A stretch of 64,000 nucleotides of DNA from an uncultured Clostridia bacterium (GTDB lineage: Bacteria; Bacillota; Clostridia; TANB77; CAG-508): assembly GCA_934162535.1 (NCBI GenBank), contig CAKPJC010000001.1, positions 15,577 to 79,576 of the forward strand, written 5' to 3'. The notes under the pieces are model-generated. The model ran no database searches and was not told the origin of the DNA. It saw nothing but the letters and a program-made list of their open reading frames with translations. The translations under genes were made by a program, and so were the position numbers. Within the stretch, counting starts at the first letter, position 1. Each line of letters begins with the position of its first letter. Positions 1 through 36,678 of the stretch are shown piece by piece.

Positions 1-852
1 ATTTCGCTTGATGGAGAATCTTGGGGTTCTAAGATAACAATAAATCAAGCAGCATTAGCTGCAGCAACTGCAAATATATACCAATGGCCAACAGCTTTAA
101 ATCCAGTATCTACTACAGGTACTACAAGTAGTGGTAAATTAGAAATGTTTGCAGGAGATGTTGATGCTACAGGAGCAAAACTAACAAATGCAGCAGCTGA
201 AACAGATTTGACAACTGGTGGAGTTGGAGGAAAATATATTGCATTTGATTTATATTTTAAAAATTCATCTTCACAAGCAGATGGTGATAAACTACAATTA
301 AATGCAGGAACATCAGTTGCAATTAATGCTGAAAATGGTAAAGCAGGAACAGGATTGGAAAATTGTATTAGATCAGGACTTGTATTGTATAGTAATTCAG
401 AGGTCATGACTGCTGATGGAACAACTGTAAGAAGTATTGCTCCTGGAACACCAGGTGTATGTATTTGGGAACCAAACTATAACAAACATATTGCAGAGGT
501 TGTAAAAAATGATGCTAGAGTAACATCAGCAGATGCAGTACTTCCAACATATGGATTAAAATCTGCAGGAAATGGAACAATTGAGGGAATAAATGAAGCA
601 ACACCAACAGCACCAGAAATAGGAGAGCAAAAAACATTACAAACAGAAGCATCACTTACTGATGCGCTAGAAATGAAAAACCTTGGTACTGATCCAATTA
701 TGTTAAAACCAAATGCAATAATGAAATCAAGAGTATATGTATGGATTGAAGGACAAGATGTTGACTGTATAGATACAGCATCAACAGGTAAACAAATAGA
801 CATAACATTGAAATTCACAAAACCAGAAGTACAACATGATGCTGGTCCATAG
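1..852 (+). CDS. secreted Thr/Gly/Ala/Asn-rich protein, 5' partial (open to window edge); candidate SipW-cognate TasA/camelysin-like matrix protein
   Basis: Frame 1 has no stop from nt 1 to 852, so the track's Met at 145 is internal. Composition resembles a low-complexity secreted protein. It lies same-strand and about 1.9 kb upstream of a clear SipW-type signal peptidase. A hairpin plus T-run follows it. Confidence 0.45.
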   Translation: MSLDGESWGSKITINQAALAAATANIYQWPTALNPVSTTGTTSSGKLEMFAGDVDATGAKLTNAAAETDLTTGGVGGKYIAFDLYFKNSSSQADGDKLQLNAGTSVAINAENGKAGTGLENCIRSGLVLYSNSEVMTADGTTVRSIAPGTPGVCIWEPNYNKHIAEVVKNDARVTSADAVLPTYGLKSAGNGTIEGINEATPTAPEIGEQKTLQTEASLTDALEMKNLGTDPIMLKPNAIMKSRVYVWIEGQDVDCIDTASTGKQIDITLKFTKPEVQHDAGP

Positions 853-1011: not shown

Positions 1012-1140
1012 ATGGACATGAACGAAATAGACCTTAACAAAATAGAAAATGAGGAAGTACTTGATTTATATACAAGAACAAAAGAATTCATAGAATTTTT
1101 AGATAATGAAATAAAATCAAATGAGGTGGAGAAAAAATAA
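1012..1140 (+). CDS. 42-aa acidic micro-ORF (MDMNEIDLNKIENEEVLDLYTRTKEFIEFLDNEIKSNEVEKK), translationally coupled (TAATG) to the downstream gene
   Basis: A good SD (AAAGAGG) sits 8 nt upstream of the ATG at 1012. The stop TAA at 1138-1140 overlaps the ATG at 1140 of the next ORF by 1 nt. Codon usage is native. Confidence 0.45.
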   Translation: MDMNEIDLNKIENEEVLDLYTRTKEFIEFLDNEIKSNEVEKK

Positions 1141-5333: not shown

Positions 5334-5894
5334 ATGGAGGGCAAAATGAGACGTTCAAAAAAAAGAAAAAACGGCATTTTACATTCAACAGGACAGCGAC
5401 GTAGAAACTACAAAAGAAGAAAAAAAATACTATTTTTTGACATAATACTAATTTTAACACTTATTATAATTTTTAATTTATTTGTAAAAAAAGAAGATGA
5501 AATACCAGTAGTAGAAAAATATAGTGAAGAACATCAAAAACAAATAATAAATGAAGAATTAGAGAAACAAAACATAACACAAGAAGCACAAAATAAAGAC
5601 ACAATAGAAATACCTGTGCCAGAAAAACAAAGTGGTTCAATGATAATAAATAAAATAACAATGTCAGAAATAGAAGATGGAAAAACAATATTAAGTTTTT
5701 TGATAGAAAATAAAGGGAAGAGTGATGGAGGTTCATCATTTCCTATTTTATTAAAAGGTGTAGATGGAAATGTAATTTTAAAAACATACATAGATGTACC
5801 AGTAATAAAAGCTGGGCAACAGACAAAAACAAACATAGTAATAGATGAAAAAATAAAAGATGTAGAAAGCACAGAACTCACAGATGAACAATAG
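5334..5894 (+). CDS. small bitopic membrane protein with a very basic N-terminus (RRSKKRKN...RRRNYKRRKK), one TM and an extracytoplasmic domain of about 120 aa; the true start is possibly ATG 5346
   Basis: The ORF has a GGAGGG SD just upstream of ATG 5346. It is the first gene of a probable operon with the giant protein. A TGaTATACT extended -10 lies at about 5293-5301. Confidence 0.6.
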   Translation: MEGKMRRSKKRKNGILHSTGQRRRNYKRRKKILFFDIILILTLIIIFNLFVKKEDEIPVVEKYSEEHQKQIINEELEKQNITQEAQNKDTIEIPVPEKQSGSMIINKITMSEIEDGKTILSFLIENKGKSDGGSSFPILLKGVDGNVILKTYIDVPVIKAGQQTKTNIVIDEKIKDVESTELTDEQ

Positions 5895-5903
5895 GAGGAA
5901 AGA

Positions 5904-8900
5904 ATGAAATACTTTGAGAAATATCAAAAAAGAAAATTTCATAAAAAAATAGTGAACACAGCTTTTTTATTAATATTCTCAATTATAGCAATAACATCAT
6001 ATTATACAGCTAATTTTTCAAAGGCAAAAGATATAATAGAAGTAAATGTTAATATAAAAGATACAATAATAAGTGAAAGCATAGAAAAATGCAAAGTAAA
6101 TGCGACAGAAGGAATTGATGGAGAATCATTTTATGTGAAATTACCAAAATATATTAATAACAAAAAGGTAATAAAATATTCATATAGCACAGAAAATGCA
6201 GGAGTATCAACAGATACAGAACAAACTGCGGAAAACGAGGTAGAAAAAGCTGTAAAAGCAGAACAAAATGTGCCATTAAACCAAATAGGACCAAATGACA
6301 TATTACCAGAAAGCAAAATATATTTAACATCAACAGAAGTAAAGAAACAAGAATTAACAATATTAGCACATTATGATATAAGAGAACAAAATGGCAAAAA
6401 TTTATATAATCAATATATTGAAGATACAAAAGATAATAACAAAATAACTGTATCAGGCTATATGCCGGAAAATGCGAAACTAATAATACAAGAAGTTGAC
6501 AAAAAAGAAGCTCAAACAACAATAAGACAACAAAGCCAAAGACCCATAATATTGGCAGTAGCATATGACATAAAAATTCAATGTGGAGAAGACATATATG
6601 AGCCATACGAATTTGACCAAAACATAAATGTAAAAATAGAAAAAGAAGATTTAAAAGAAAAAGAGACAAATGTATGGCATATAGATGACAAAAACAAAGT
6701 AGAAAAGTTAGAACAAAAGCCAGAAACAAATGATATAGAATTTGTAACAAATGGATTTTCAATATTTGGACTAGAAGATGTAGAAGCAACAGAATTGGCA
6801 CTTGATGGAATGGCAGATAGTATTTTAACAATAGATGATGCAGAATCAGATAAATACTACTGGCAAGGTCAAAATTACACAGAAGACACAACAGGAGAAA
6901 ACAAAAACATATACACGGAATATGCGAACGTTACAGTAAATTATCATGGATATGGATTAAATGAAGTAGAACCAGAAAAAATAGGATATGTATCATTAAC
7001 AGAAAAATATAATATAGTTACATACAAAAAAACTGCACCAATAGTTAGTGGAAACATATCTATTGAATTAGTAGATAATCCATTTATAGATAGACCAACT
7101 GGATACGGATTTGGTGGATGGACATCACCAGATGGGATAATATCAACAGATACAAAGACAAAAACACAAACAATTACTGCAACAGGTTCAAAAAATGTGA
7201 CACTAAACATATATGCAAACTGGAAAACAGCAACAGTAGTGTACTTGAACTCAGATGGAGGAAATGACAACTTAAATGATGGATTATCTCCTGAAACACC
7301 ATTTGGTTCATGGAGTAGAGCATATGAATATTTATATAACAACTCACAAGATAGAACTGACAGAGAAAACAACATAATAGTATTGACAGGAAACATAGAC
7401 TCAACTATGCATGGCTCAAGGACAGTAACAGGTTCACAAACAATGCTTGCAGATGTTACATATGAATCATCAACAACATTCACATCAGGAGAAAAATATA
7501 TATTAGCAACAGGGACAGGAGAAGGAAGCAATGCACTTGCTGGGATAAATGGAAGCATAGAAAATGCAACATTATCAACAACAGAAAAGCCACCAGCAGG
7601 AGCTGAATGGATAATCCAACAATCTGGAAATGGATATACAATAAAGAATAATGATAATTGGCAGTATTTACACCATTCAAGATATAGTGGATTATATTTT
7701 AGTGATTCGTCATTTACTTGGACATATGATATTAACAATAGAAGATTTTATTATCAGACTACTGGATGGAGAAGAACGACATATTATTTAAGATATAATA
7801 ATGGAACATGGACAACAACAACAAATGCGAATTCAGCACAAAGTTTTTATTTTCTAAAATGTAAAGTAGAAAATGAAAGACCAGGTCCAATTGTAAATAC
7901 AAAATCGGATAATATAGGAAGTAACAACAACTATACATCATCAAGAAATGTTGCCTCAACAATAACAAGTTTATATGGACATGTGGATTATAGAGATAAT
8001 GCGATAATGGACTTAACCCAAAATAATTATAGACATATATATGCATATGCGGATTTACAAATAGAATATTTGAATATAAATGCGACAGGCTACACAAGAG
8101 CATGCGGAACAGACGGAATATCAATAAGCACAAGATATCCAGTGTTTTACGGAAGAGCACACAATTTTAGAATAGGCAGAGGAATAAAACAAGCAGGAAC
8201 AAGCAATGATGCATCAACAGCAGGTGCAGTAATAGGAGGATTTGAATCAGGAACAACAGTAGGAAGTACATATAATTCAAATAATGCATATAAATTAGTA
8301 ATAGAATCAGGAAAATATTCATCAATACTTGCATGGAATATGCGTGATGAAACAGCGAGCTATTATGGAACAGTAAATTGGACTTTAGGAAATGATATAG
8401 ACAGAGTTTTAAAAGAGAATAGTCAATTAAAATCTTATTTTAGAAATACTGTAAATGCAGGAGGAGGAGTAAACGGCAGAGCAAATGTAAGAGATAAAGC
8501 ATATCTGATAAATGTAAAAAGTGGGACTTTTGGAGTGGATGCAGTAACAGATGGATATGGTGATGCATACACATCTGGAATTTATATGGGAGGATATGGA
8601 ACAGGTTCAAGTAGTGGCACAAGAGACATAAGTGATAGATATATGATAGTAGAAGGTGGATTAATATATAACATAAACTGTGGACTAAAGGTAGATAGTG
8701 GAAAGACAGATATATTAACAAAACTTTATGTAAAAGGTGGAGAAATATATAACATTGTCGGTGGAGCAGGATTATCAACTACATACGGTTCAAGAATACA
8801 ACAAATAACAGGAGGAAAAATAAGATATAGTGTAAGTGGTGGTTCAAATGGATATAGTGGGTCAGATGGTGATGGACAAATATCAAATTGCAATACATTG

Positions 8901-11900
8901 GTATATATAGGTGGAAATGCACAAATAGGGGATGAAACACTTGTAGGATATGTAACAGACAATAACACATCAAATGATGACCAAGGAAAATTATATCTAG
9001 TAGAAGCAGGATGCGTTTTAGGAGCAGGAAACGGAAGTAACCCTAATTATACAGCTGGTCAAGTAGACAATTCACATATTATAATTGCAGATGAAGCACA
9101 TATACTAAACAGTGTATATGGTGGTGGAAACTACGGAATAGTAGGTAATAGAAATGGAACAACAGCAAAAGCAACAATAGACATTTTAGGTGGAACGGTT
9201 GATAGAAATGTATATGGGGGCTCAAATAATAGTAGCATATTTGGTTCAACAACAGTAAATGTAAAGGGAGGACATGTTAAAGGGGCTGTATATGGTGGAA
9301 CAAACACATCAGGTACTGTAAGTTCAACAGCTACAGTAAATGTAACTGGTGGAATATTAGGAAATGACACAAATGCAGAAGATAATGAGGCATTATTTGG
9401 TGGAGGATATGGTCAAAGTACAACAGTTTCAGGAAAAGCAACAGTGAATATATTAGACACGTCTTCAAATGTATATATATATGGTAGTGCATATGGAGGA
9501 AGCTCACTTGGTAGAATGAACTCAAATGTTGAAGTAAACATTCAAGATATACCAGGAAACTCAAATATAATATCAATTGTAGGTTCTGTATTTGCAGGAG
9601 GAAAAGGAACAACAACAACATCTGCTACAATTGCAGGAAGTGCAACATTAAATATAGATGGAAGCAATTTACCAGATTGTAGTGTATTTGGTGGAAATGA
9701 TATAAATGGTACAACATCAGGTGCAATAACAGTTAATGTTGGTAGAACATATGAATCAAAACTAAAAAATGCATATGGTGGAGGAAATAAAGCAGGAATA
9801 ACAACAACAACTCCAAGTGTAAGAGTGTATTTACTAGCAAATTCAAATGTAACAAATGCATTTAATGGTGGTAGAGCTGCAAACCTAACATCATCAGGAA
9901 CATCTGATGCAACAAGAGCAATTTACTTACAAGGAGGAAAGGCTAAAAATATATTTGGTGGATCAGACTCATCAGGAACAGTTACAGCAAGTCATGTATA
10001 TATAGAATCAGGTACAGCAGAAAATGTATATGGTGGAAACAATATTGGAGGAACAACAAATACAACATATGTATATGTTACAGGAGGAACAGTAACAAAT
10101 ACATATGGAGGAGGTTACCAAGCGTCAACACCAGCAACAAATGTTAGCCTAACAGGAGGAACAGTAACAAACGGATTTGGTGGAGGAAATGCAGCAGATG
10201 TAACCAATACATCAATATCACTTGCTGGAAGTACTGCAACAAATATATATGGTGGCTCAAATGAAAAAGGCACAGTTTCAAGTACATATGTAACCATAAA
10301 TTCTGGAACAGTAACAAACGTATATGGAGGAAACAACGCAGGTGGAAAATCAGTAAATACAGAAGTAATAGTTAATTCTTCTACAGAAAATGTATATGGA
10401 GGAGGAAATGAGGCTATAACATCTGGAGACACACTTGTAACATTACATAATGCAACAATTACAGGAAGTGCATTTGGAGGAGGAAATGGTGCTGCAGCTA
10501 TAGTTTTAGGAAATAGTGTAATTACAGCCGATGGAACAACAAACATAGCACATGACCTATTTGGTGGAGGAAATGCAGCAGCAACAGGTTCATCATCAAA
10601 AACATCAAAAGTTACAGTTGACATATCAGGAGGAACAATAAGAGGAGATGTTTATGGAGCAGCAAACACATCAGTTGTTACAGGTGAAACACATGTTAAT
10701 ATAGGAACAACAGTTGTTTCAACAACAGGACTAACACAAGGAACAATAGATATTGCAGGAACAGTATTTGGTGGAGGAAAATCAAATACAGCTGGTTCAG
10801 AAGACTACGACTTCTCATTTGAGAGTGTTATAGGAAATACATATATAGACATAAATGCAGAAAATTATGACAATGGAACATATACATATAATATAAGAAA
10901 AAGTATATTTGGAGCAGGAAATGCTGCAACAATGTCAGGAGATGGATACATAAATATAACTAATTACGGAAAAGCTAGTGATATAAAACAAAACATATCA
11001 ATACAAAGAGCAACGACAGTTACAATAGACAATAGTGTAATGTATCTTGAAGGAACAACAGATAGGACAAACGAAATATCGACAGCTGTATATACATTAA
11101 ACAGAATAAAAGATTTAAAAGTAAAAAATAATACAACATTATATTTAGCAAGTGGTGCTAATATACTTGAAAAACTTACAAGTATAGACTCATCAGAATC
11201 AAAAGCAACAGTAACAATTGGTCCAAATGGAGTATTATCAAGAAATGTAGATAATAGAATTTACTTATTACAAGGAAAGAACTTAATTTTAAAAACAGAA
11301 GCTGGTGCACATGGTGAAGTATATGGAATGACATATGTAGGTTTATTCAAAGGAATACTTAATAGAGATACAGGAATATATGGAACAAACTATAATCATG
11401 GAGACACAGTTCCAGCAGATTATGAAGAATTTGCAAGAAATTCATATGTTCAAGGTAAACACTATGATGGGCATGATATAAAAATAGATGGTTTCTATAC
11501 AAACTATGAGGAAGATGGAGTCATTGCAACAAAATATATAGAACCAACACCAGAATCAGCACCATATTATCAATGGATATTAGGTAAAGTTTCAGATGAT
11601 ATATATTATGATGAAATAGAATTAATTGCAACAAAATATGCAACGACATCAACATATGTATTGGACTTAACAGGACTTGATTTCCCAAATATGACAGTAA
11701 ATGTTATAGGATTTGATACATCAGAATTAAGAAATGATGTAATATTAAAAGACAATAGTGAAATACCTAATATTGAAATGGATGCAACAAAAGCAAATAC
11801 AACATTTGGATTAACAATGACAGCAGGAAATACAGGATGGCAAACAAAAGGAACAACAGCATATTACACATCATCAGATAATCAAAATAATGGTACATTT

Positions 11901-13517
11901 AGTGGAACAGAACAATACTTAAGTGATAACTCAACAACAACACCATCATTCAGTTTCTACATGGGTCACTCAAAGAATGTAAGTACAAATGAGGTACTTG
12001 GTTCAGTAACAATACATTTACAAGTATCATATGTATCAGGAGATGAACTTATATTAAGAAATGTATATATACCATTAAGATTATCAACAAACAATACATT
12101 CAAATTAGCAACAGACTTCTATGAAGGAGCTATAACACCAGGTAAAAAATATAGCATGTTCCCAACAACAAATACAAGTATAACAAGTAACAGCTCATTC
12201 TCAGCATATTACTCATTATACTTAGGTGGATACTCACAAGACCAAGAATATTATGATAATTTTGTAGGATATAATCATTATCTTGTATCAAGCTGTGTAT
12301 TACCTGCAAAAACCAAAATAACATTTGTTGATAGGTCAAAAGATGAAATAAAATACTATTATTATATAGTAACAGACCAGGATGAACAAAACGCTAGAAA
12401 AGAATACAAATTCCAAGACTTTACTGCAATGGGAAGTACTGATGAAGGAACAGGAAGGACGGCTGAAAAATACAATAATGACTCAAGTTATTTGAATACA
12501 ACATTAGATATAGTATTAGAGGAATTTATATTCCAAGTGGACTTTGCAGATATTACATTAGCAAATACATTTGCAAATCAGTCACTAACGGTTCAATTAA
12601 GAGATATGTGGGATGATAGCGTTAAATTAAAAGTTAATACAGACCAATATCCAATGCTATTTAACTTATATAGTGACAAAGAAGCTATAAAGAGTGTAGA
12701 TGTAAATTCAAATAAAACATATATTTATATGGGAAATGAATTTAAAGTGGATTTAAAAACAGTATATGAATTCCAAACAGAAAATGCAGATACTGTATAT
12801 GATACAACACACTTTGAAGATCAGCTTGGTGTAAAAATAACTGTATTAGAAGGTAGTACACAATTATCATCAACAGACTTAACAGGTATATATGTAGAGT
12901 ATAATGGAAAAAGATATTATGCAAGAACTGATGGTTCATACAGAATAAAAATAGCAGATGCTGTTTCAAATGTATTAACTGACATGGTATTCTATACAGA
13001 AAATGGTAAACTAGATACGGCAACATATACATTCAAATTTGAGACATTTGGCTCAATAGATGGAGTATATTTCTCTAGCGCAATTGCAACAGATAGTATA
13101 AATATGCAAATAATAAATGCAGATTATGGTTTATCAGCTATATTAGATGATAAATCGGTACTAATAGACAAAGCAACAGGAATAACAAAAAATAATGATA
13201 ATGCTTTAGATTTTACAATAGGATATTCAGCAGAATTTACAAATCCTAAAATATGTGTATCATTATATAGAAGAGATTATTCAAGCATATATAGTTCAAA
13301 ATATAATTTAATAGACTTAGCAAATTATGTTTCAAATACTCTAACACCAACGGCTGTTGAAAAAGAATATTTGGTAACAGATAATCCACAAGCTACACAA
13401 AATTTTGTATTAAGACTAAAAGATAATCTTACAACGGGAACATATAAAATTGTATTCTCACTATATGATGGAGAAAATTACATAGGAAATATAGACAAAA
13501 TGATTATCATTAAATAA
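5904..13517 (+). CDS. giant (2537-aa) secreted or surface protein with an N-terminal signal anchor, a central tract of about 700 aa of about 22-residue beta-helix-type repeats (..V.GG.V.NVYGGxN..) and no LPXTG motif; putative adhesin or matrix fibre protein
   Basis: Uninterrupted 7.6-kb ORF with an SD (AGGAGG) before the ATG and an N-terminal hydrophobic segment. Dozens of degenerate YGG[GSN]N / FGGGN repeat units occur between about aa 980 and 1700. The C-terminus ends ...DKMIIIK with no sortase signal. Confidence 0.8.
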   Translation: MKYFEKYQKRKFHKKIVNTAFLLIFSIIAITSYYTANFSKAKDIIEVNVNIKDTIISESIEKCKVNATEGIDGESFYVKLPKYINNKKVIKYSYSTENAGVSTDTEQTAENEVEKAVKAEQNVPLNQIGPNDILPESKIYLTSTEVKKQELTILAHYDIREQNGKNLYNQYIEDTKDNNKITVSGYMPENAKLIIQEVDKKEAQTTIRQQSQRPIILAVAYDIKIQCGEDIYEPYEFDQNINVKIEKEDLKEKETNVWHIDDKNKVEKLEQKPETNDIEFVTNGFSIFGLEDVEATELALDGMADSILTIDDAESDKYYWQGQNYTEDTTGENKNIYTEYANVTVNYHGYGLNEVEPEKIGYVSLTEKYNIVTYKKTAPIVSGNISIELVDNPFIDRPTGYGFGGWTSPDGIISTDTKTKTQTITATGSKNVTLNIYANWKTATVVYLNSDGGNDNLNDGLSPETPFGSWSRAYEYLYNNSQDRTDRENNIIVLTGNIDSTMHGSRTVTGSQTMLADVTYESSTTFTSGEKYILATGTGEGSNALAGINGSIENATLSTTEKPPAGAEWIIQQSGNGYTIKNNDNWQYLHHSRYSGLYFSDSSFTWTYDINNRRFYYQTTGWRRTTYYLRYNNGTWTTTTNANSAQSFYFLKCKVENERPGPIVNTKSDNIGSNNNYTSSRNVASTITSLYGHVDYRDNAIMDLTQNNYRHIYAYADLQIEYLNINATGYTRACGTDGISISTRYPVFYGRAHNFRIGRGIKQAGTSNDASTAGAVIGGFESGTTVGSTYNSNNAYKLVIESGKYSSILAWNMRDETASYYGTVNWTLGNDIDRVLKENSQLKSYFRNTVNAGGGVNGRANVRDKAYLINVKSGTFGVDAVTDGYGDAYTSGIYMGGYGTGSSSGTRDISDRYMIVEGGLIYNINCGLKVDSGKTDILTKLYVKGGEIYNIVGGAGLSTTYGSRIQQITGGKIRYSVSGGSNGYSGSDGDGQISNCNTLVYIGGNAQIGDETLVGYVTDNNTSNDDQGKLYLVEAGCVLGAGNGSNPNYTAGQVDNSHIIIADEAHILNSVYGGGNYGIVGNRNGTTAKATIDILGGTVDRNVYGGSNNSSIFGSTTVNVKGGHVKGAVYGGTNTSGTVSSTATVNVTGGILGNDTNAEDNEALFGGGYGQSTTVSGKATVNILDTSSNVYIYGSAYGGSSLGRMNSNVEVNIQDIPGNSNIISIVGSVFAGGKGTTTTSATIAGSATLNIDGSNLPDCSVFGGNDINGTTSGAITVNVGRTYESKLKNAYGGGNKAGITTTTPSVRVYLLANSNVTNAFNGGRAANLTSSGTSDATRAIYLQGGKAKNIFGGSDSSGTVTASHVYIESGTAENVYGGNNIGGTTNTTYVYVTGGTVTNTYGGGYQASTPATNVSLTGGTVTNGFGGGNAADVTNTSISLAGSTATNIYGGSNEKGTVSSTYVTINSGTVTNVYGGNNAGGKSVNTEVIVNSSTENVYGGGNEAITSGDTLVTLHNATITGSAFGGGNGAAAIVLGNSVITADGTTNIAHDLFGGGNAAATGSSSKTSKVTVDISGGTIRGDVYGAANTSVVTGETHVNIGTTVVSTTGLTQGTIDIAGTVFGGGKSNTAGSEDYDFSFESVIGNTYIDINAENYDNGTYTYNIRKSIFGAGNAATMSGDGYINITNYGKASDIKQNISIQRATTVTIDNSVMYLEGTTDRTNEISTAVYTLNRIKDLKVKNNTTLYLASGANILEKLTSIDSSESKATVTIGPNGVLSRNVDNRIYLLQGKNLILKTEAGAHGEVYGMTYVGLFKGILNRDTGIYGTNYNHGDTVPADYEEFARNSYVQGKHYDGHDIKIDGFYTNYEEDGVIATKYIEPTPESAPYYQWILGKVSDDIYYDEIELIATKYATTSTYVLDLTGLDFPNMTVNVIGFDTSELRNDVILKDNSEIPNIEMDATKANTTFGLTMTAGNTGWQTKGTTAYYTSSDNQNNGTFSGTEQYLSDNSTTTPSFSFYMGHSKNVSTNEVLGSVTIHLQVSYVSGDELILRNVYIPLRLSTNNTFKLATDFYEGAITPGKKYSMFPTTNTSITSNSSFSAYYSLYLGGYSQDQEYYDNFVGYNHYLVSSCVLPAKTKITFVDRSKDEIKYYYYIVTDQDEQNARKEYKFQDFTAMGSTDEGTGRTAEKYNNDSSYLNTTLDIVLEEFIFQVDFADITLANTFANQSLTVQLRDMWDDSVKLKVNTDQYPMLFNLYSDKEAIKSVDVNSNKTYIYMGNEFKVDLKTVYEFQTENADTVYDTTHFEDQLGVKITVLEGSTQLSSTDLTGIYVEYNGKRYYARTDGSYRIKIADAVSNVLTDMVFYTENGKLDTATYTFKFETFGSIDGVYFSSAIATDSINMQIINADYGLSAILDDKSVLIDKATGITKNNDNALDFTIGYSAEFTNPKICVSLYRRDYSSIYSSKYNLIDLANYVSNTLTPTAVEKEYLVTDNPQATQNFVLRLKDNLTTGTYKIVFSLYDGENYIGNIDKMIIIK

Positions 13518-13610
13518 GATAAAACGCAGTTTCTATGTAGAAACATTATACCAATAGAAAGTTCGAGAAAAAATCCTATTGGATAAAATGATTAGTTGAA
13601 AGGGGTATTT

Positions 13611-15089
13611 ATGAAAAAATCAAACAAAACAATAATAATAGTAATTTCAATTGTTTTAGTAATAATGTTAATTGTTGGGGGGGTTGCATATGCATATATA
13701 GCAACAGACTTATTTAAAAGTAATAAAGAAATGTTTTTTAAATATTTTTCACAAGTTACAGATAAAGATACAGGAATAATTAACAAAAATCTAAATGATT
13801 ATTTTACTAAAAAAAGTAGTGAATCATATCAAAATAGAGGAAATATAAAATTTAACTATTCAGATAATACAGGTACAAATATGATGGATTCAAAAATATC
13901 TGACAAATTAAATGAATTATCAATTGAATTTGATGGAATATCAAACAAAGAAAAAAATATTACAAATAGAAATATTACAATTAATTATGGAAATGATGTA
14001 ACATTTCCAATTAAATATATAAAAGATCAAGAACTACATGGTGTACAATCTAAATATATAGGAAGTAAATATGTTTCTATTAGGAACAGTAATTTGCAAC
14101 AATTGGCTTCTAAACTTGGAATGGATACAACATTTATTCCTAATAAAATAGAGATTTCAGAAAAAAAGGAAAAAATAAAATTTACTGAAGAGGAATTAGC
14201 AAAAATAAAAAGCACATATGGTCCAATTATTGAGCAGGGGCTAACAGATGATAATTTTTCAAAGGAAGCAAATAATAAAGGAGAAAGCAATTATATATTA
14301 GCAGTTTCTGGAGACCAATTAAAAAATATAATGATAAACTTATTAGAGGCATTTAAACAAGATAAAGATTTAATAAAAAGATTAAATGAAAATATTAATT
14401 TAACTGAAATAAATACATCAAAACAAATAACGCAACAACAAATAAGCGAGATATTAAAAGAATTACAAGAAAAAGATTCATCAGAATTTAAAGAATTGAA
14501 AATTATGATTGGCTATTCAAAAAAATCTGTAAATGAAATTATGATACAATATGACCAAATAGTAATAAATATGAAAAAAGAAAAAAATAGTAATAGTGAA
14601 AAATATTCAGTAAATTTACAGATAAATAATAATGAGGAACAGGAAGATGTAAAAGACATTAGTACTGTAAGAATTGATTTTGAAGCAAATTATAATGGAT
14701 TAGATGAGTTAAAAGATGTTTCGGGAGAATATATGATAAAAATAAAAGCTATAACAAATGATAATACAGATTTACAATATCAGTATAATATAACAAATGA
14801 GGTACAATTTAATGATTCTATAGATGTTGTAAAACTTGATAATAGAAATACTTTTATTTTAAATGATGTTGAAGATAATGTACTTACCAGCTTTTTAACA
14901 AAAGCGAGCGAAAGAATTCAAACAGTAAATAAAGAACAAATGCAACAATTAGGATTAGAAGAAGATGAAAATCCATTATTATATACAAATTTTATTACTT
15001 ATTATTATGTTGAAACAATAAAATCAGTACAGTCAATTTATGAGAATTCAGTGAAACCATATGAAATGAATAGTAAAGGTAACGAATAA
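13611..15089 (+). CDS. membrane-anchored (N-terminal TM) extracytoplasmic protein of unknown function, last gene of the giant-protein operon
   Basis: The SD GAAAGGGG lies 5 nt before ATG 13611; the track start at 13596 overlaps the SD. No terminator separates it from the giant gene. A strong terminator follows. Confidence 0.65.
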   Translation: MKKSNKTIIIVISIVLVIMLIVGGVAYAYIATDLFKSNKEMFFKYFSQVTDKDTGIINKNLNDYFTKKSSESYQNRGNIKFNYSDNTGTNMMDSKISDKLNELSIEFDGISNKEKNITNRNITINYGNDVTFPIKYIKDQELHGVQSKYIGSKYVSIRNSNLQQLASKLGMDTTFIPNKIEISEKKEKIKFTEEELAKIKSTYGPIIEQGLTDDNFSKEANNKGESNYILAVSGDQLKNIMINLLEAFKQDKDLIKRLNENINLTEINTSKQITQQQISEILKELQEKDSSEFKELKIMIGYSKKSVNEIMIQYDQIVINMKKEKNSNSEKYSVNLQINNNEEQEDVKDISTVRIDFEANYNGLDELKDVSGEYMIKIKAITNDNTDLQYQYNITNEVQFNDSIDVVKLDNRNTFILNDVEDNVLTSFLTKASERIQTVNKEQMQQLGLEEDENPLLYTNFITYYYVETIKSVQSIYENSVKPYEMNSKGNE

Positions 15090-15131
15090 GAGAGTATAAA
15101 TATTATAAAATTTATGGATATGTGATTAAAA

Positions 15132-15160
15132 ATAGCAAGAAACACTTGCTATTTTTTTTT
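15132..15160 (+). terminator. rho-independent terminator (ATAGCAAG-AAACA-CTTGCTAT followed by T9)
   Basis: Perfect 8-bp stem followed by a run of 9 T. Confidence 0.7.
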
Positions 15161-33927: not shown

Positions 33928-36678
33928 ATGGGAGTAATTAACAAAATATTTAAGAGCTACAGCGAAAAAGAAGTAAAGAGAGTAATGCCAATAGTAGAAA
34001 AAATAAATGCATTAGAAGATGAGATGACAAAACTTAGTGATGAAGAACTAAAAAATAAAACAGATAAATTAAAAAATGAATTAAAAGAAGGGAAAACTCT
34101 TGATGACATATTACCAGAAGCATTTGCAGTTGTAAGAGAAGCTTCAAAAAGAGTATTAGGAATGAGACACTTTGATGTACAATTAATAGGTGGAATAATA
34201 TTACACCAAGGTAGAATTGCCGAAATGAAAACAGGTGAAGGAAAAACATTAGTAGCAACACTACCAGTATATCTAAATGCACTTACAGGAAAAGGAGTGC
34301 ATGTAATAACAGTAAATGATTACCTAGCCAAAAGAGATAGTGAATGGATGGGAAAACTTTACAAATTCTTAGGGCTATCAGTAGGACTTGCAATAGCAGG
34401 AATGAACCCAAAAGAAAAACAAGAAGCATATGCATGTGATATAACATATGGAACAAACAATGAATTTGGATTTGATTACCTAAGAGATAACATGGTAATA
34501 TACGAGAACCAATTAGTACAAAGAGGACTAAATTATGCAATTGTCGATGAGATAGACAGTATATTAATAGATGAAGCAAGAACACCACTTATAATATCAG
34601 GTAGAGCAAACCAATCATCAGACCTTTACAAAAAAGCAAATGACTTTGTAAAAAGACTAACACCAAGAGTAATAGTAGAAGAAGATGTAAAAGATGAAGT
34701 ACAAGCAGAAGACAACGAAAAATATGATTATATAGTTGACTTAAAAGCAAAATCAGCATCATTAACACTAAAAGGAATAAAAAAAGCAGAAGAATTCTTC
34801 AGACTAGAAAACTTCAATGATATAGAAAACTCAACATTAGTACACCATGTAAATCAAGCATTGAGAGCACATGGAGTTATGAAGAAAGACATAGACTACA
34901 TAGTAAAAGATGGAGAAGTACTAATAGTTGATGAATTTACAGGACGTATAATGTATGGAAGAAGATACAACAATGGATTGCATCAAGCAATAGAAGCAAA
35001 AGAAGGAGTTAAAATTGCAGATGAATCAAAAACATTGGCAACAATAACATTCCAGAACTATTTCAGAATGTATGATAAATTATCAGGTATGACAGGTACT
35101 GCTATGACAGAAGAAGCTGAATTTGAAGAGATATACAATTTAGACGTTATATCAATACCAACAAACAGACCAATGATAAGAAAAGATGAACATGATGTAA
35201 TATACAAAAATGAAAATGCAAAATTTAGAGCTATTGTTGAAAGCATAAAAGAAAGTCATAAAAAGGGACAACCAGTACTAGTTGGTACAGTATCAATAGA
35301 AAAATCTGAAAAATTAAGTGCTATACTAAAAAAAGAAGGAATTAAACATGAAGTATTAAATGCCAAATTCCATGAAAAAGAAGCTGAAATAATAGCACAA
35401 GCCGGAAAATTTGGAGCAGTAACAATAGCAACAAACATGGCAGGTCGTGGTACAGATATTATGCTTGGAGGAAACAGTGAATATCTTGCAAAACAAGAAA
35501 TGAGAAGAAACAAAGTTCCAGAAAACCTAATAGAAGAATCAAATACTTATTATGAAACAGATGACCAACAAATATTAAGAGCAAGAGAAGAATTCAAAAA
35601 ATTAGAAGAAAAATATTCTAAAGAAATAAAAGAAGAAAAAGAAAAAGTAATTGAAGCTGGAGGACTAAAAATAATTGGTACAGAAAGACATGAATCAAGA
35701 AGAATTGATAATCAGCTTCGTGGACGTAGTGGACGTCAAGGAGATCCAGGAGAATCTAAATTCTATATAGGGCTAGATGATGACTTAATGAAAATATTTG
35801 GTGGAGACATGATTACAAAGGTATATAATTCAATAGGAATGGATGAAAATGTACCAATACAAAATAGAATGATAAGTAATGCAGTAGAATCTGCACAAAA
35901 GAAAGTTGAAGGAAGAAACTTCAGCATTAGAAAAAATGTATTAAAATATGATGATGTAATGAATGTCCAAAGAGAAGTAATATACAAACAAAGAAGACAA
36001 GTTCTTGATGGAGAGAACCTAAGCGAAAGCATTAAGAAAATGATAGAATCATTATCAGAAGAAGTTGTATTAACATATGCTAGCAATGATGGAGAAGAAA
36101 TTAATGTTGAATCATTAGATACAGACATAAGAAACATATTCGGAATTGAAATGGCAGAATTTATAAAAGAAAATTCAAAAGATTCAAATGCTATAATTTC
36201 AAAATTACAAGAACTAGCATTAAACAAATATGCAGAAAAAGAAACTGAAATAGGTAGTGAATATCTAAGAGAACTTGAAAGAGTTGTTATGCTAAAAGTT
36301 GTTGACCAAAAATGGATGGATCATATAGACAGCATGGACGAACTAAAAAATGGTATAGGACTTCGTGCATATGGACAACAAGATCCAGTTGTTAAGTACA
36401 GAACAGAAGGAATGGAAATGTTTGAAGAAATGGTACTTGATATTAAACATGATATTGTTCAAATTCTTATGAATCTTCGTAAACAAGAAGATGTTAAGAG
36501 AGAGGAAACAGCTAAAATAACAGGTGCAGCTTTACAAGCAATAAATAGCGTAGATTCTGGAGAACAAATAAAATCAGATGTAAACAGAACAGTTGTAAAT
36601 CAAGAGCCAAAAATTGGAAGAAACGACCCATGTCCATGTGGAAGTGGTAAGAAGTATAAGAATTGCTGTGGGAAGTAA
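33928..36678 (+). CDS. secA: preprotein translocase ATPase SecA
   Basis: DEAD-like motor motifs ([31 protein letters not shown]) and the C-terminal zinc motif [14 protein letters not shown], 916 aa. Confidence 0.95.

Follow-up and report, generated by a model that had tools for sequence, protein, structure and literature searches.

Uncultured Clostridia with small genomes of low GC content are common in the guts of humans and animals, and no means by which they adhere to mucus, to particles of food, or to one another or other cells is known to us. A stretch of 64,000 nucleotides (nt) from one of them (NCBI GenBank assembly GCA_934162535.1, contig CAKPJC010000001.1, positions 15,577 to 79,576), referred to here as the window, encodes a protein of 2,537 amino acids (aa), the giant, and raises the question of how a protein of this size may be exported and displayed in the absence of a sortase signal. 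The giant is a real protein, and its family is conserved but matches no protein-family database. Its setting is best explained by a conserved gene cluster, not described previously, that uncultured low-GC gut Clostridia share and that centers on SipW-type signal peptidases and several small exported proteins, and the neighboring sipW gene probably accounts for the export of the giant without a sortase signal. The interpretation that we favor, holding it with about evenly divided confidence, is that the giant is a fibrous, adhesin-like protein exported by the Sec pathway, that its signal peptide is removed by the SipW of the cluster, and that it works together with exported proteins of the type encoded by the upstream gene g0.

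An Intact Gene and a Conserved Protein Family

The giant gene was described in an earlier note as a single open reading frame (ORF), and the translation agrees with that description; the sequence GGAGG lies 8 nt 5′ of its ATG. The concern raised at that time, that re-sequencing might interrupt an ORF in a repeat-rich region, can be set aside. Contigs of the same species from three independent samples each encode the identical, uninterrupted 2,537-aa product, and no tandem repeats were found in the ORF at the DNA level, which together exclude an assembly artefact. Among 5.8 billion proteins searched, 103 relatives were found, mostly full-length (2,500–3,200 aa) and almost none with a Pfam domain; about 100 full-length relatives exist. 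Alignment over the entire giant was obtained for 26 of these, at 50–89% identity (alignment A1). The representative genomes of GTDB, considered at the level of species, contain 55 giant loci, all of them in metagenome-assembled genomes (MAGs) of uncultured gut Clostridia or Bacillota. The hosts of these MAGs include Hadza and Nepali people, sheep, goat, roe deer, rabbit, and chicken, and the bacteria include “Candidatus (Ca.) Scatovivens” and one organism with a closed 1.55-Mb chromosome.

Searched against Pfam and NCBIfam, the whole giant matched no family at E ≤ 1, and it matched no sequence in the PDB; sequence searches of these three databases with its N-terminus, its putative lectin-type segment, or its C-terminal third likewise returned nothing. 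The earlier statement that the protein has neither S-layer homology nor choline-binding repeats is in keeping with the Pfam and NCBIfam result. The giant gene fills about 7.6 kb of a small genome and is kept in 55 or more species-level genomes, all the while invisible to these sequence searches.

Predicted Architecture of the Giant

From the N- to the C-terminus the giant would comprise a signal peptide, a region of about 400 aa, a glycine-rich solenoid rod of about 1,100 aa with an inserted trefoil, and about five immunoglobulin-like (Ig-like) sandwiches. Within aa 880–1700 the motif [YF]GG[GSTN] occurs 17 times, compared with 0.96 expected and a maximum of 7 in 5,000 shuffles, so that the degenerate GG-containing repeats noticed earlier are well above chance. 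Their length had been given as about 22 aa and should be revised, since the self-identity peaks fall at lags of 24–26 aa. Eight near-perfect units of 24–25 aa (aa 1333–1530, nt 9900–10493) are the cleanest, about 19 units in aa 1070–1626 are well formed, and the remainder are degenerate. The consensus is roughly x-G-T-V-x-x-x-x-V-x-I-x-G-G-T-V-x-N-x-[VI]-[YF]-G-G-[GSN]-N, and its glycine columns are invariant across relatives. The giant repeats thus have the sequence features by which beta-solenoids are recognized, namely tandem units of about 12–30 aa with position-specific glycine or asparagine and alternating apolar residues.

An AlphaFold2 (AF2) model of aa 1340–2537, calculated with 35 relatives, is all-beta, with a mean predicted local distance difference test score (pLDDT) of 87.2 and a predicted template modeling score (pTM) of 0.65. 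The pLDDT is 90–97 across aa 1340–1620, and the repeats all show an identical, in-register strand pattern, with three short strands assigned to each unit of aa 1502–1625. An in-register pattern in every repeat is what a beta-solenoid would give, and the structure prediction, which had been recommended as a check for aa 900–1700, is to that extent compatible with one. The predicted solenoid probably spans about aa 660–1790 (nt 7881–11273). Allowing for about 40 coils at an assumed 4.8 Å each, together with five Ig-like domains, the rod would measure several tens of nm. The earlier description of the repeats as a central tract is correct as to their location, but a trefoil module and an Ig-like tail are also present in the giant.

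Two segments of the N-terminal region can be compared with known folds by inspection, in neither case with support from a hidden Markov model (HMM). The first, aa ~395–440 (“GYGFGGWTSPDG...YANW”), presumably resembles an InlB B-repeat. The second, aa 442–555 (nt 7227–7568, forward strand; “ATVVYLNSDGGNDNLNDGLSPETPFGSW...”, “VVYLNSDGGNDNLNDGLSPETPFGSW”), is a highly conserved block in alignment A1 that we take to resemble the N-terminal start, or cap, of right-handed beta-helix proteins. It is followed by a segment (aa 556–650) that aligns with modules of the relatives P0071 and P0064 (BLASTP E 2e-11 to 4e-7). Trefoil modules of relatives exceed the Pfam cutoffs for Fascin (PF06268, 25.0 against 23.1) and RicinB_lectin_2 (PF14200, 28.3 against 25.6), and the profile of alignment A1 gives weak matches in the PDB to beta-trefoil chains annotated as “lectin-like fold protein” (E ~0.06). 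Because the aligned modules of the relatives pass these cutoffs and the profile weakly matches trefoil chains, aa 556–650 are read as a putative lectin-type beta-trefoil module carried within the solenoid rod; the segment itself has no direct match in Pfam, even at E ≤ 5. Relatives of about 3,150 aa (P0051–P0073, including P0064 and P0071) have at least five copies of the trefoil module compared with the single copy in the giant of the window, and copy number of the lectin module appears to be the main size variable of the family.

The C-terminal region was called non-repetitive in the earlier note. This is true of its sequence, but AF2 and Foldseek predict about five tandem Ig-like sandwiches there. 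Top matches of the region in the PDB by Foldseek are the Ig-like domains of PrgB (8beg, E 2e-10), complement MG arrays, integrin legs, CFA/I pilins, and adhesin extender repeats, and a viral fold library yielded DUF11, Big-1, and BACON arrays. No match was found in Pfam for aa 1751–2537, even at E ≤ 5, and the C-terminal tail contains no transmembrane (TM) segment and no wall-binding motif.

A Conserved Site Behind the N-Terminal Hydrophobic Segment

The predicted signal peptide includes the hydrophobic h-region (aa 15–35), which is the sole window in the giant with a Kyte-Doolittle value above 1.6. A search for LPXTG-like motifs ([LIN]Px[TSA][GANS]) was negative throughout the giant, and the C-terminal series of LPXTG-like motif, hydrophobic segment, and basic tail that marks sortase substrates is absent. 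With this negative search, and with the only hydrophobic segment at the N-terminus, the earlier conclusion that there is no sortase signal is well founded. A small-x-small site follows the h-region by 6–10 residues in 36 of 36 full-length giant N-termini; the more restrictive pattern [ST][KRN][AS] is found after the h-region in 31 of them, compared with a background of 0.10. Variants of the site among the relatives include SKA, SRA, TKS, TRS, SSA, and FS-E, after which an alternating, beta-strand-like sequence begins, and in alignment A1 both S39 and A41 are retained in at least 90% of the sequences. The N-terminus had been interpreted earlier as a signal anchor. The single hydrophobic segment on which that interpretation was built stands, but the conservation of a small-x-small site behind it favors cleavage over anchoring.

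Linkage to SipW-Type Peptidases and Exported Proteins

Linkage was examined by tblastn of the window's neighboring genes against the 55 loci, followed by clustering of all ORFs of the loci. A gene for a SipW-type peptidase accompanies the giant in 50 loci, and each of the genes g0 and g1 does so in 48; the loci lacking sipW, g0, or g1 are mostly truncated contigs. Three gene orders occur according to subclade, g0-g1-sipW-giant, g0-g1-giant-sipW-sipW, and g0-giant-g1-sipW. Beyond the cluster the flanks are not conserved past subclades, and the next-largest gene families are present in at most 21 loci. The rearranged order and the unconserved flanks indicate that linkage to the giant is more than inherited synteny. 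Of the routes of secretion or anchoring suggested earlier, SipW processing has thus gained strong support, as sipW remains linked despite rearrangement and the SipW of the window is the orthologue of the giant-adjacent paralogue, whereas a partnership with the downstream “497-aa” membrane protein is not supported, its gene (DUF6583) being linked in just 3 of the 55 loci.

The peptidase of the window scores 93.5 bits against the archaeal/ER-type family TIGR02228 (cutoff 51.85), and its catalytic motifs SGSMEP, THR, and GDAN are intact. Against NF046067, the equivalog of Bacillus SipW, it scores 83.5 compared with a cutoff of 190, and by these scores it is SipW-like and not an orthologue of the Bacillus enzyme. 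There are up to three SipW paralogues per cluster, and that of the window is nearest to those adjacent to g1 or the giant (median 97–125 bits) and farther from the paralogue located between cD and cC (51 bits). The giant is followed by a second paralogue (L046:19162–19776; the “sipW>-” group of 21 loci) that matches none of the SGSMEP, THR, and GDAN patterns. From these missing motifs this second paralogue is possibly a pseudo-peptidase.

The g0 family consists of exported proteins of about 340 aa, with a K/R-rich, hydrophobic N-terminus and an invariant STYA/WF[ST]AN (the slash marks the presumed cleavage position). The g0 homologue of locus L046 scores 18.1 bits over residues 15–40 against the SipW-cognate signal family TIGR04088 (cutoff 19, E 0.0023), and no TIGR04088 match is listed for the g0 homologues of locus L003. 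The proteins g0, cA, cB, and cC are remote paralogues (hhalign probabilities 88–96%) with related N-termini, the latter three being encoded upstream of the window's equivalent in other loci and carrying signal peptides of the TasA class (“TYA/WF”). For an orthologue of g0, AF2 predicts a beta-sandwich with confidence (pLDDT 85.8, pTM 0.81). In Foldseek searches of the PDB this model had no significant neighbor, the TasA fiber (8aur) ranking 43 with an E of 0.22 and a TM-score of 0.28. No match to g0 was found in Pfam, including the TasA/camelysin family (PF12389), and the g0 profile gave only weak C1q matches (E ≥ 0.15) among all PDB sequences.

Proposed Route of Export and Competing Explanations

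The four steps of the proposed route draw on different kinds of evidence. The N-terminal signal would direct export through SecA/SecYEG, as suggested by its sequence and by the presence of a secA gene in the window. The adjacent SipW paralogue would then cleave at S39-K40-A41/K42, a step proposed because the small-x-small site is conserved and because the linkage of the genes has survived rearrangement. Non-covalent retention at the surface by g0-type proteins, maybe via the new N-terminal beta-strand, is speculative. Lastly, the domain types suggest that the lectin-like module could bind host or dietary glycans or other cells, with the rod and the Ig-like array as a spacer of tens of nm. Use of the new N-terminal strand in the manner of a donor strand is a speculation drawn from a weak profile match, in which the giant N-terminus aligns with the g0 profile at an hhalign probability of 88% over the signal peptide and first strand (BLASTP E 0.036). 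The idea that the N-terminal domain of the giant is itself a g0 paralogue was considered and dropped, as a match confined to the signal peptide and first strand provides a hint only.

Several observations weigh against SipW processing and g0-mediated retention of the giant. Scanned alone, its first 70 aa give no match to TIGR04088 at E ≤ 1, and its N-terminus is without the YAWF motif of its neighbors, so that it might be processed by a housekeeping signal peptidase instead, or not be cleaved. Part of the synteny could be inherited and not selected, since all loci derive from one related lineage. The resemblance between the giant N-terminus and the g0 profile could be driven by composition. 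Finally, a TasA-like identity for g0 was rejected, as neither its sequence (Pfam, PDB profile) nor its fold (8aur) supports it, which leaves the analogy to fibers and donor strands unproven.

The same lack of a TIGR04088 match and of YAWF would suit an uncleaved signal anchor, in which aa 15–35 serve as a type II membrane anchor from which the rod projects, SipW acting upon g0-type proteins only. That the giant has just one hydrophobic segment, at its N-terminus, and nothing else that could anchor it is in line with this explanation, which was the first of the candidates named earlier. A plain anchor would not be expected to keep a small-x-small site in all 36 relatives, down to about 30% identity. 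A distinct SipW paralogue stays beside the giant or g1 through rearrangements, and we consider the anchor possible but clearly the less probable outcome. Alternatively the giant may be exported, cleaved, and then shed along with g0-type proteins into the extracellular matrix of a biofilm or aggregate, and not be displayed on the cell as an adhesin. No motif for retention in wall or membrane follows the predicted cleavage site, and the SipW operons of Bacillus and Clostridium perfringens produce matrix material (PMC10151520; 10.1101/2024.11.04.621531). The combination of a rod, a lectin module, and an Ig-like stalk, however, is the usual build of a cell-bound fibrillar adhesin, and we regard release into a matrix as unlikely; nothing here separates it from the favored explanation of a SipW-processed adhesin.

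Two other origins have very little in their favor. The earlier note likened the repeats to those of PATR- or Pmp-type passengers, and glycine-rich beta-repeats of about 25 aa are indeed shared with such proteins. An autotransporter passenger is nevertheless highly improbable, given that neither PATR (TIGR02601/PF12951) nor Pmp (PF02415/TIGR01376) was found in the giant among Pfam and NCBIfam matches at E ≤ 1 (presence of the PATR accessions in these releases not separately checked), that no C-terminal beta-barrel translocator was found and Ig-like sandwiches are predicted in its place, and that all hosts of the gene are Clostridia/Bacillota MAGs. An assembly artefact, a pseudogene, or the tail-fiber gene of a prophage might be suspected from a very long repetitive ORF with Ig-like arrays, which occur also in phage proteins. 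Such an origin seems scarcely credible for an ORF that is identical in three assemblies, is free of DNA tandem repeats, and has intact orthologues in dozens of species. The genes around it serve housekeeping functions (rpe, pgi, tig, clpP, clpX, murD, secA, pnp), with no phage gene among them, and a prophage origin of the locus was rejected.

A further reading extends the favored explanation. The giant may be the cargo, or distal part, of an undescribed Gram-positive surface appendage, with small SipW-processed subunits (g0, cA, cB, and cC) polymerizing or forming a platform into which its newly exposed N-terminal strand would dock; this is a tentative proposal, and we think it rather doubtful. 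Equally tentative is its detail, in which the SipW paralogues would control assembly, one of them serving the S-K/R-A site of the giant and one being catalytically dead, together with g1, the 42-aa protein, and the upstream pair of membrane-bound McrB-like AAA+ and DUF2357 proteins. If the appendage were real, it would mount a 280-kDa adhesin on a monoderm cell independently of sortase, and it would extend the TasA/SipW paradigm from small matrix fibers to giant adhesins.

Relationship to Known Systems

The cluster is organized like the tapA-sipW-tasA operon of Bacillus subtilis and the sipW-bsaA-bsaB-bsaC operon of C. perfringens, but its proteins cannot be assigned to the TasA family. In each case a dedicated archaeal/ER-type peptidase is encoded beside its secreted substrates, and the small substrates share an unusual signal peptide ending in T-Y/W-A before an aromatic residue. 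The bsa operon also includes a larger accessory cargo, BsaC (~70 kDa), a large non-TasA protein thought to be processed by SipW (10.1101/2024.11.04.621531). The giant is about four times the size of BsaC and is predicted to form a beta-solenoid. Other differences from both operons include the lack of TasA/camelysin similarity of g0 in sequence or fold, the presence of as many as three SipW paralogues, of which one has none of the catalytic motifs, and the additional conserved genes, namely g1, the 42-aa ORF, and those for the upstream McrB-like AAA+ and DUF2357 proteins. A search of the literature for giant proteins linked to SipW turned up only the TasA and BsaA systems.

Gram-positive fibrillar adhesins, such as PrgB with its Ig-like stalk (8beg) and the large adhesins with extender repeats (6xi3), resemble the giant in their very large size, N-terminal signal, beta-rich or Ig-like stalk, and putative lectin-like module. 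Unlike these adhesins, the giant has no LPXTG motif, SLH domain, choline-binding module, or C-terminal TM segment, its stalk is mainly a predicted glycine-rich beta-solenoid that falls outside Pfam models, and its gene is located in a SipW cluster. Surface proteins of the giant fibrillar kind are known already, as are SipW operons; what is new is the stable coupling of a 280-kDa predicted solenoid protein to dedicated SipW paralogues and to proteins with TasA-type signals, with no component recognized by Pfam. Placement in a SipW cluster suggests a concrete, testable route by which a giant surface protein of a Gram-positive cell could be exported and attached without a sortase signal.

The repeats may be compared with two further groups. 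PATR and Pmp proteins also have glycine-rich repeats of about 20–25 aa that are expected to stack as a beta-helix. Their signatures are GGAI/FxxN, whereas the motif of the giant is [VI][YF]GG[GSN]N with an internal GG[TS]V, and the giant differs additionally in having neither an HMM match nor a translocator barrel and in belonging to a monoderm. The kinship with autotransporters that had been suspected is therefore not borne out. The second group consists of unannotated giant proteins of gut Bacteroidales with “VYGGGN” repeats, in which the same type of repeat is found with the consensus VYGGGNxA...GG.I..VFGGG. Searched alone, the repeat core gives 552 matches, many of them hypothetical proteins of Bacteroidales. 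Only the repeats are shared with the giant, at 15–30% coverage, and the other modules of these proteins are different (Fn3_assoc, CHB_HEX_C_1, Flg_new_2, Peptidase_M26_N). Hundreds of unannotated giant proteins (P0087–P0103 and P0246–P0343), mostly from gut Bacteroidales, carry the repeat VYGGGN...GG.I..VFGGG, for which there is no Pfam model. The GG-repeat, g0, g1, and the 42-aa ORF are linked families that merit family models of their own.

Other Genes of the Locus

Features of the window are listed in Table 1. Of the conserved partners of the giant, g1 belongs to a family of 532 representative clusters, all of about 500–550 aa, and matched nothing in Pfam, NCBIfam, or PADLOC; it has no obvious signal peptide on reading and is presumably cytoplasmic. 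The 42-aa ORF is conserved just ahead of g1 in 18 loci, even in some where g1 has its place downstream of the giant, and is called as a gene in the same-species contig L056. A genuine small protein, translationally coupled, is probably made from it. Less widespread is g3, which occurs in 17 of the 55 loci, all of nearer subclades. It has a long linker rich in proline, glutamine, and valine, a conserved C-terminal domain, and no obvious signal peptide on reading, and no match was found for it in the same three libraries.

The 186-aa protein encoded immediately before the giant is specific to a subclade (5–7 loci) and was for this reason rejected as a general partner. The gene following the giant was noted earlier as a co-operonic 497-aa membrane protein. 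Its product is membrane-anchored and belongs to the same transcription unit here, but it is not a conserved partner and is likely 492 aa long, as translation probably starts at the ATG at 13611, after AAAGGGG, in preference to the TTG at 13596. The hairpin beyond it probably ends a transcription unit that begins with the 186-aa gene and comprises the giant gene and the gene for DUF6583. A promoter scan was uninformative in this AT-rich window (101 sites compared with 100.5 expected).

Table 1. Location of the giant gene, its predicted parts, and other features of the window.
Feature	Position (nt)	Strand	Basis or remark
g0, C-terminal 283 aa, cut by the start of the window	1–852	+	Translation; 48/55 loci
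Acidic small ORF, 42 aa (MDMNEIDLNKIENEEVLDLYTRTKEFIEFLDNEIKSNEVEKK)	1012–1140	+	Stop overlaps the start of g1
g1, 538 aa	1140–2756	+	Conserved partner, before or after the giant; 48/55 loci
SipW-type (archaeal/ER-type) signal peptidase I, 201 aa	2771–3376	+	TIGR02228; linked in 50/55 loci
g3, 579 aa	3381–5120	-	Divergent; between sipW and giant
186-aa (or 182-aa) protein	5334–5894	+	N-terminal K/R-rich segment, one TM segment; ends 10 nt before the giant
Giant gene, 2,537 aa	5904–13517	+	Intact ORF from ATG
Giant: predicted signal peptide, aa 1–41	5904–6026	+	K-rich n-region, h-region aa 15–35, YYTANF-S39-K40-A41 / K42
Giant: N-terminal region of ~400 aa			Between signal peptide and solenoid
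Giant: putative beta-trefoil (ricin-B/fascin-like) lectin-type module, aa 556–650	7569–7853	+	BLASTP to modules of relatives
Giant: GG-repeat core, aa 1070–1626	9111–10781	+	Repeat statistics, AF2
Giant: about five predicted tandem Ig-like beta-sandwiches, aa ~1930–2537	11691–13514	+	AF2 secondary structure; pLDDT dips at domain borders
DUF6583 membrane-anchored protein	13611–15089	+	PF20224, 71.9 bits (cutoff 27), full-length coverage
Terminator-like hairpin and T-run	15128–15156	+	
SecA, full-length	33928–36678	+	20 kb downstream of the giant

The start of the window cuts g0. Tandem duplication of g0 is seen in the close relatives L003 (L003:2710–4758), L004, and L009. Of the same-species contigs (L056–L058), L056 carries a fragment of an upstream gene directly before a full-length g0, and the other two stop short of g0. 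The tandem repeat of g0 may break assemblies at this point.

At the equivalent position in most loci the order cF332-cE508-cD376-sipW-cC205-cB202-cA240 is found upstream; a search for the upstream cluster genes cA–cG elsewhere in the window found none. The first three of these genes form a trio at L046:679–4406, with equivalents in about 35–40 loci, and lie outside the window. The protein cE508 is membrane-anchored and combines two TM segments and a coiled coil with an AAA+ domain of the McrB-like type (NF008457, E 7.5e-5), and it matches the PADLOC candidate-defense family PDC-M26A at E 1e-34. Its neighbor cD376 contains DUF2357 (E 2.7e-12), apparently without a nuclease domain; DUF2357 is the N-domain of McrC-like proteins. 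The trio may constitute a defense module next to the surface cluster, or it may supply that cluster with an ATPase for assembly.

The window has a GC content of about 28% and contains no tRNA genes over its 64 kb. Away from the giant locus it encodes RNase J and a GH57 branching enzyme in addition to the housekeeping genes named above, and an AI-2E transporter gene is also present.

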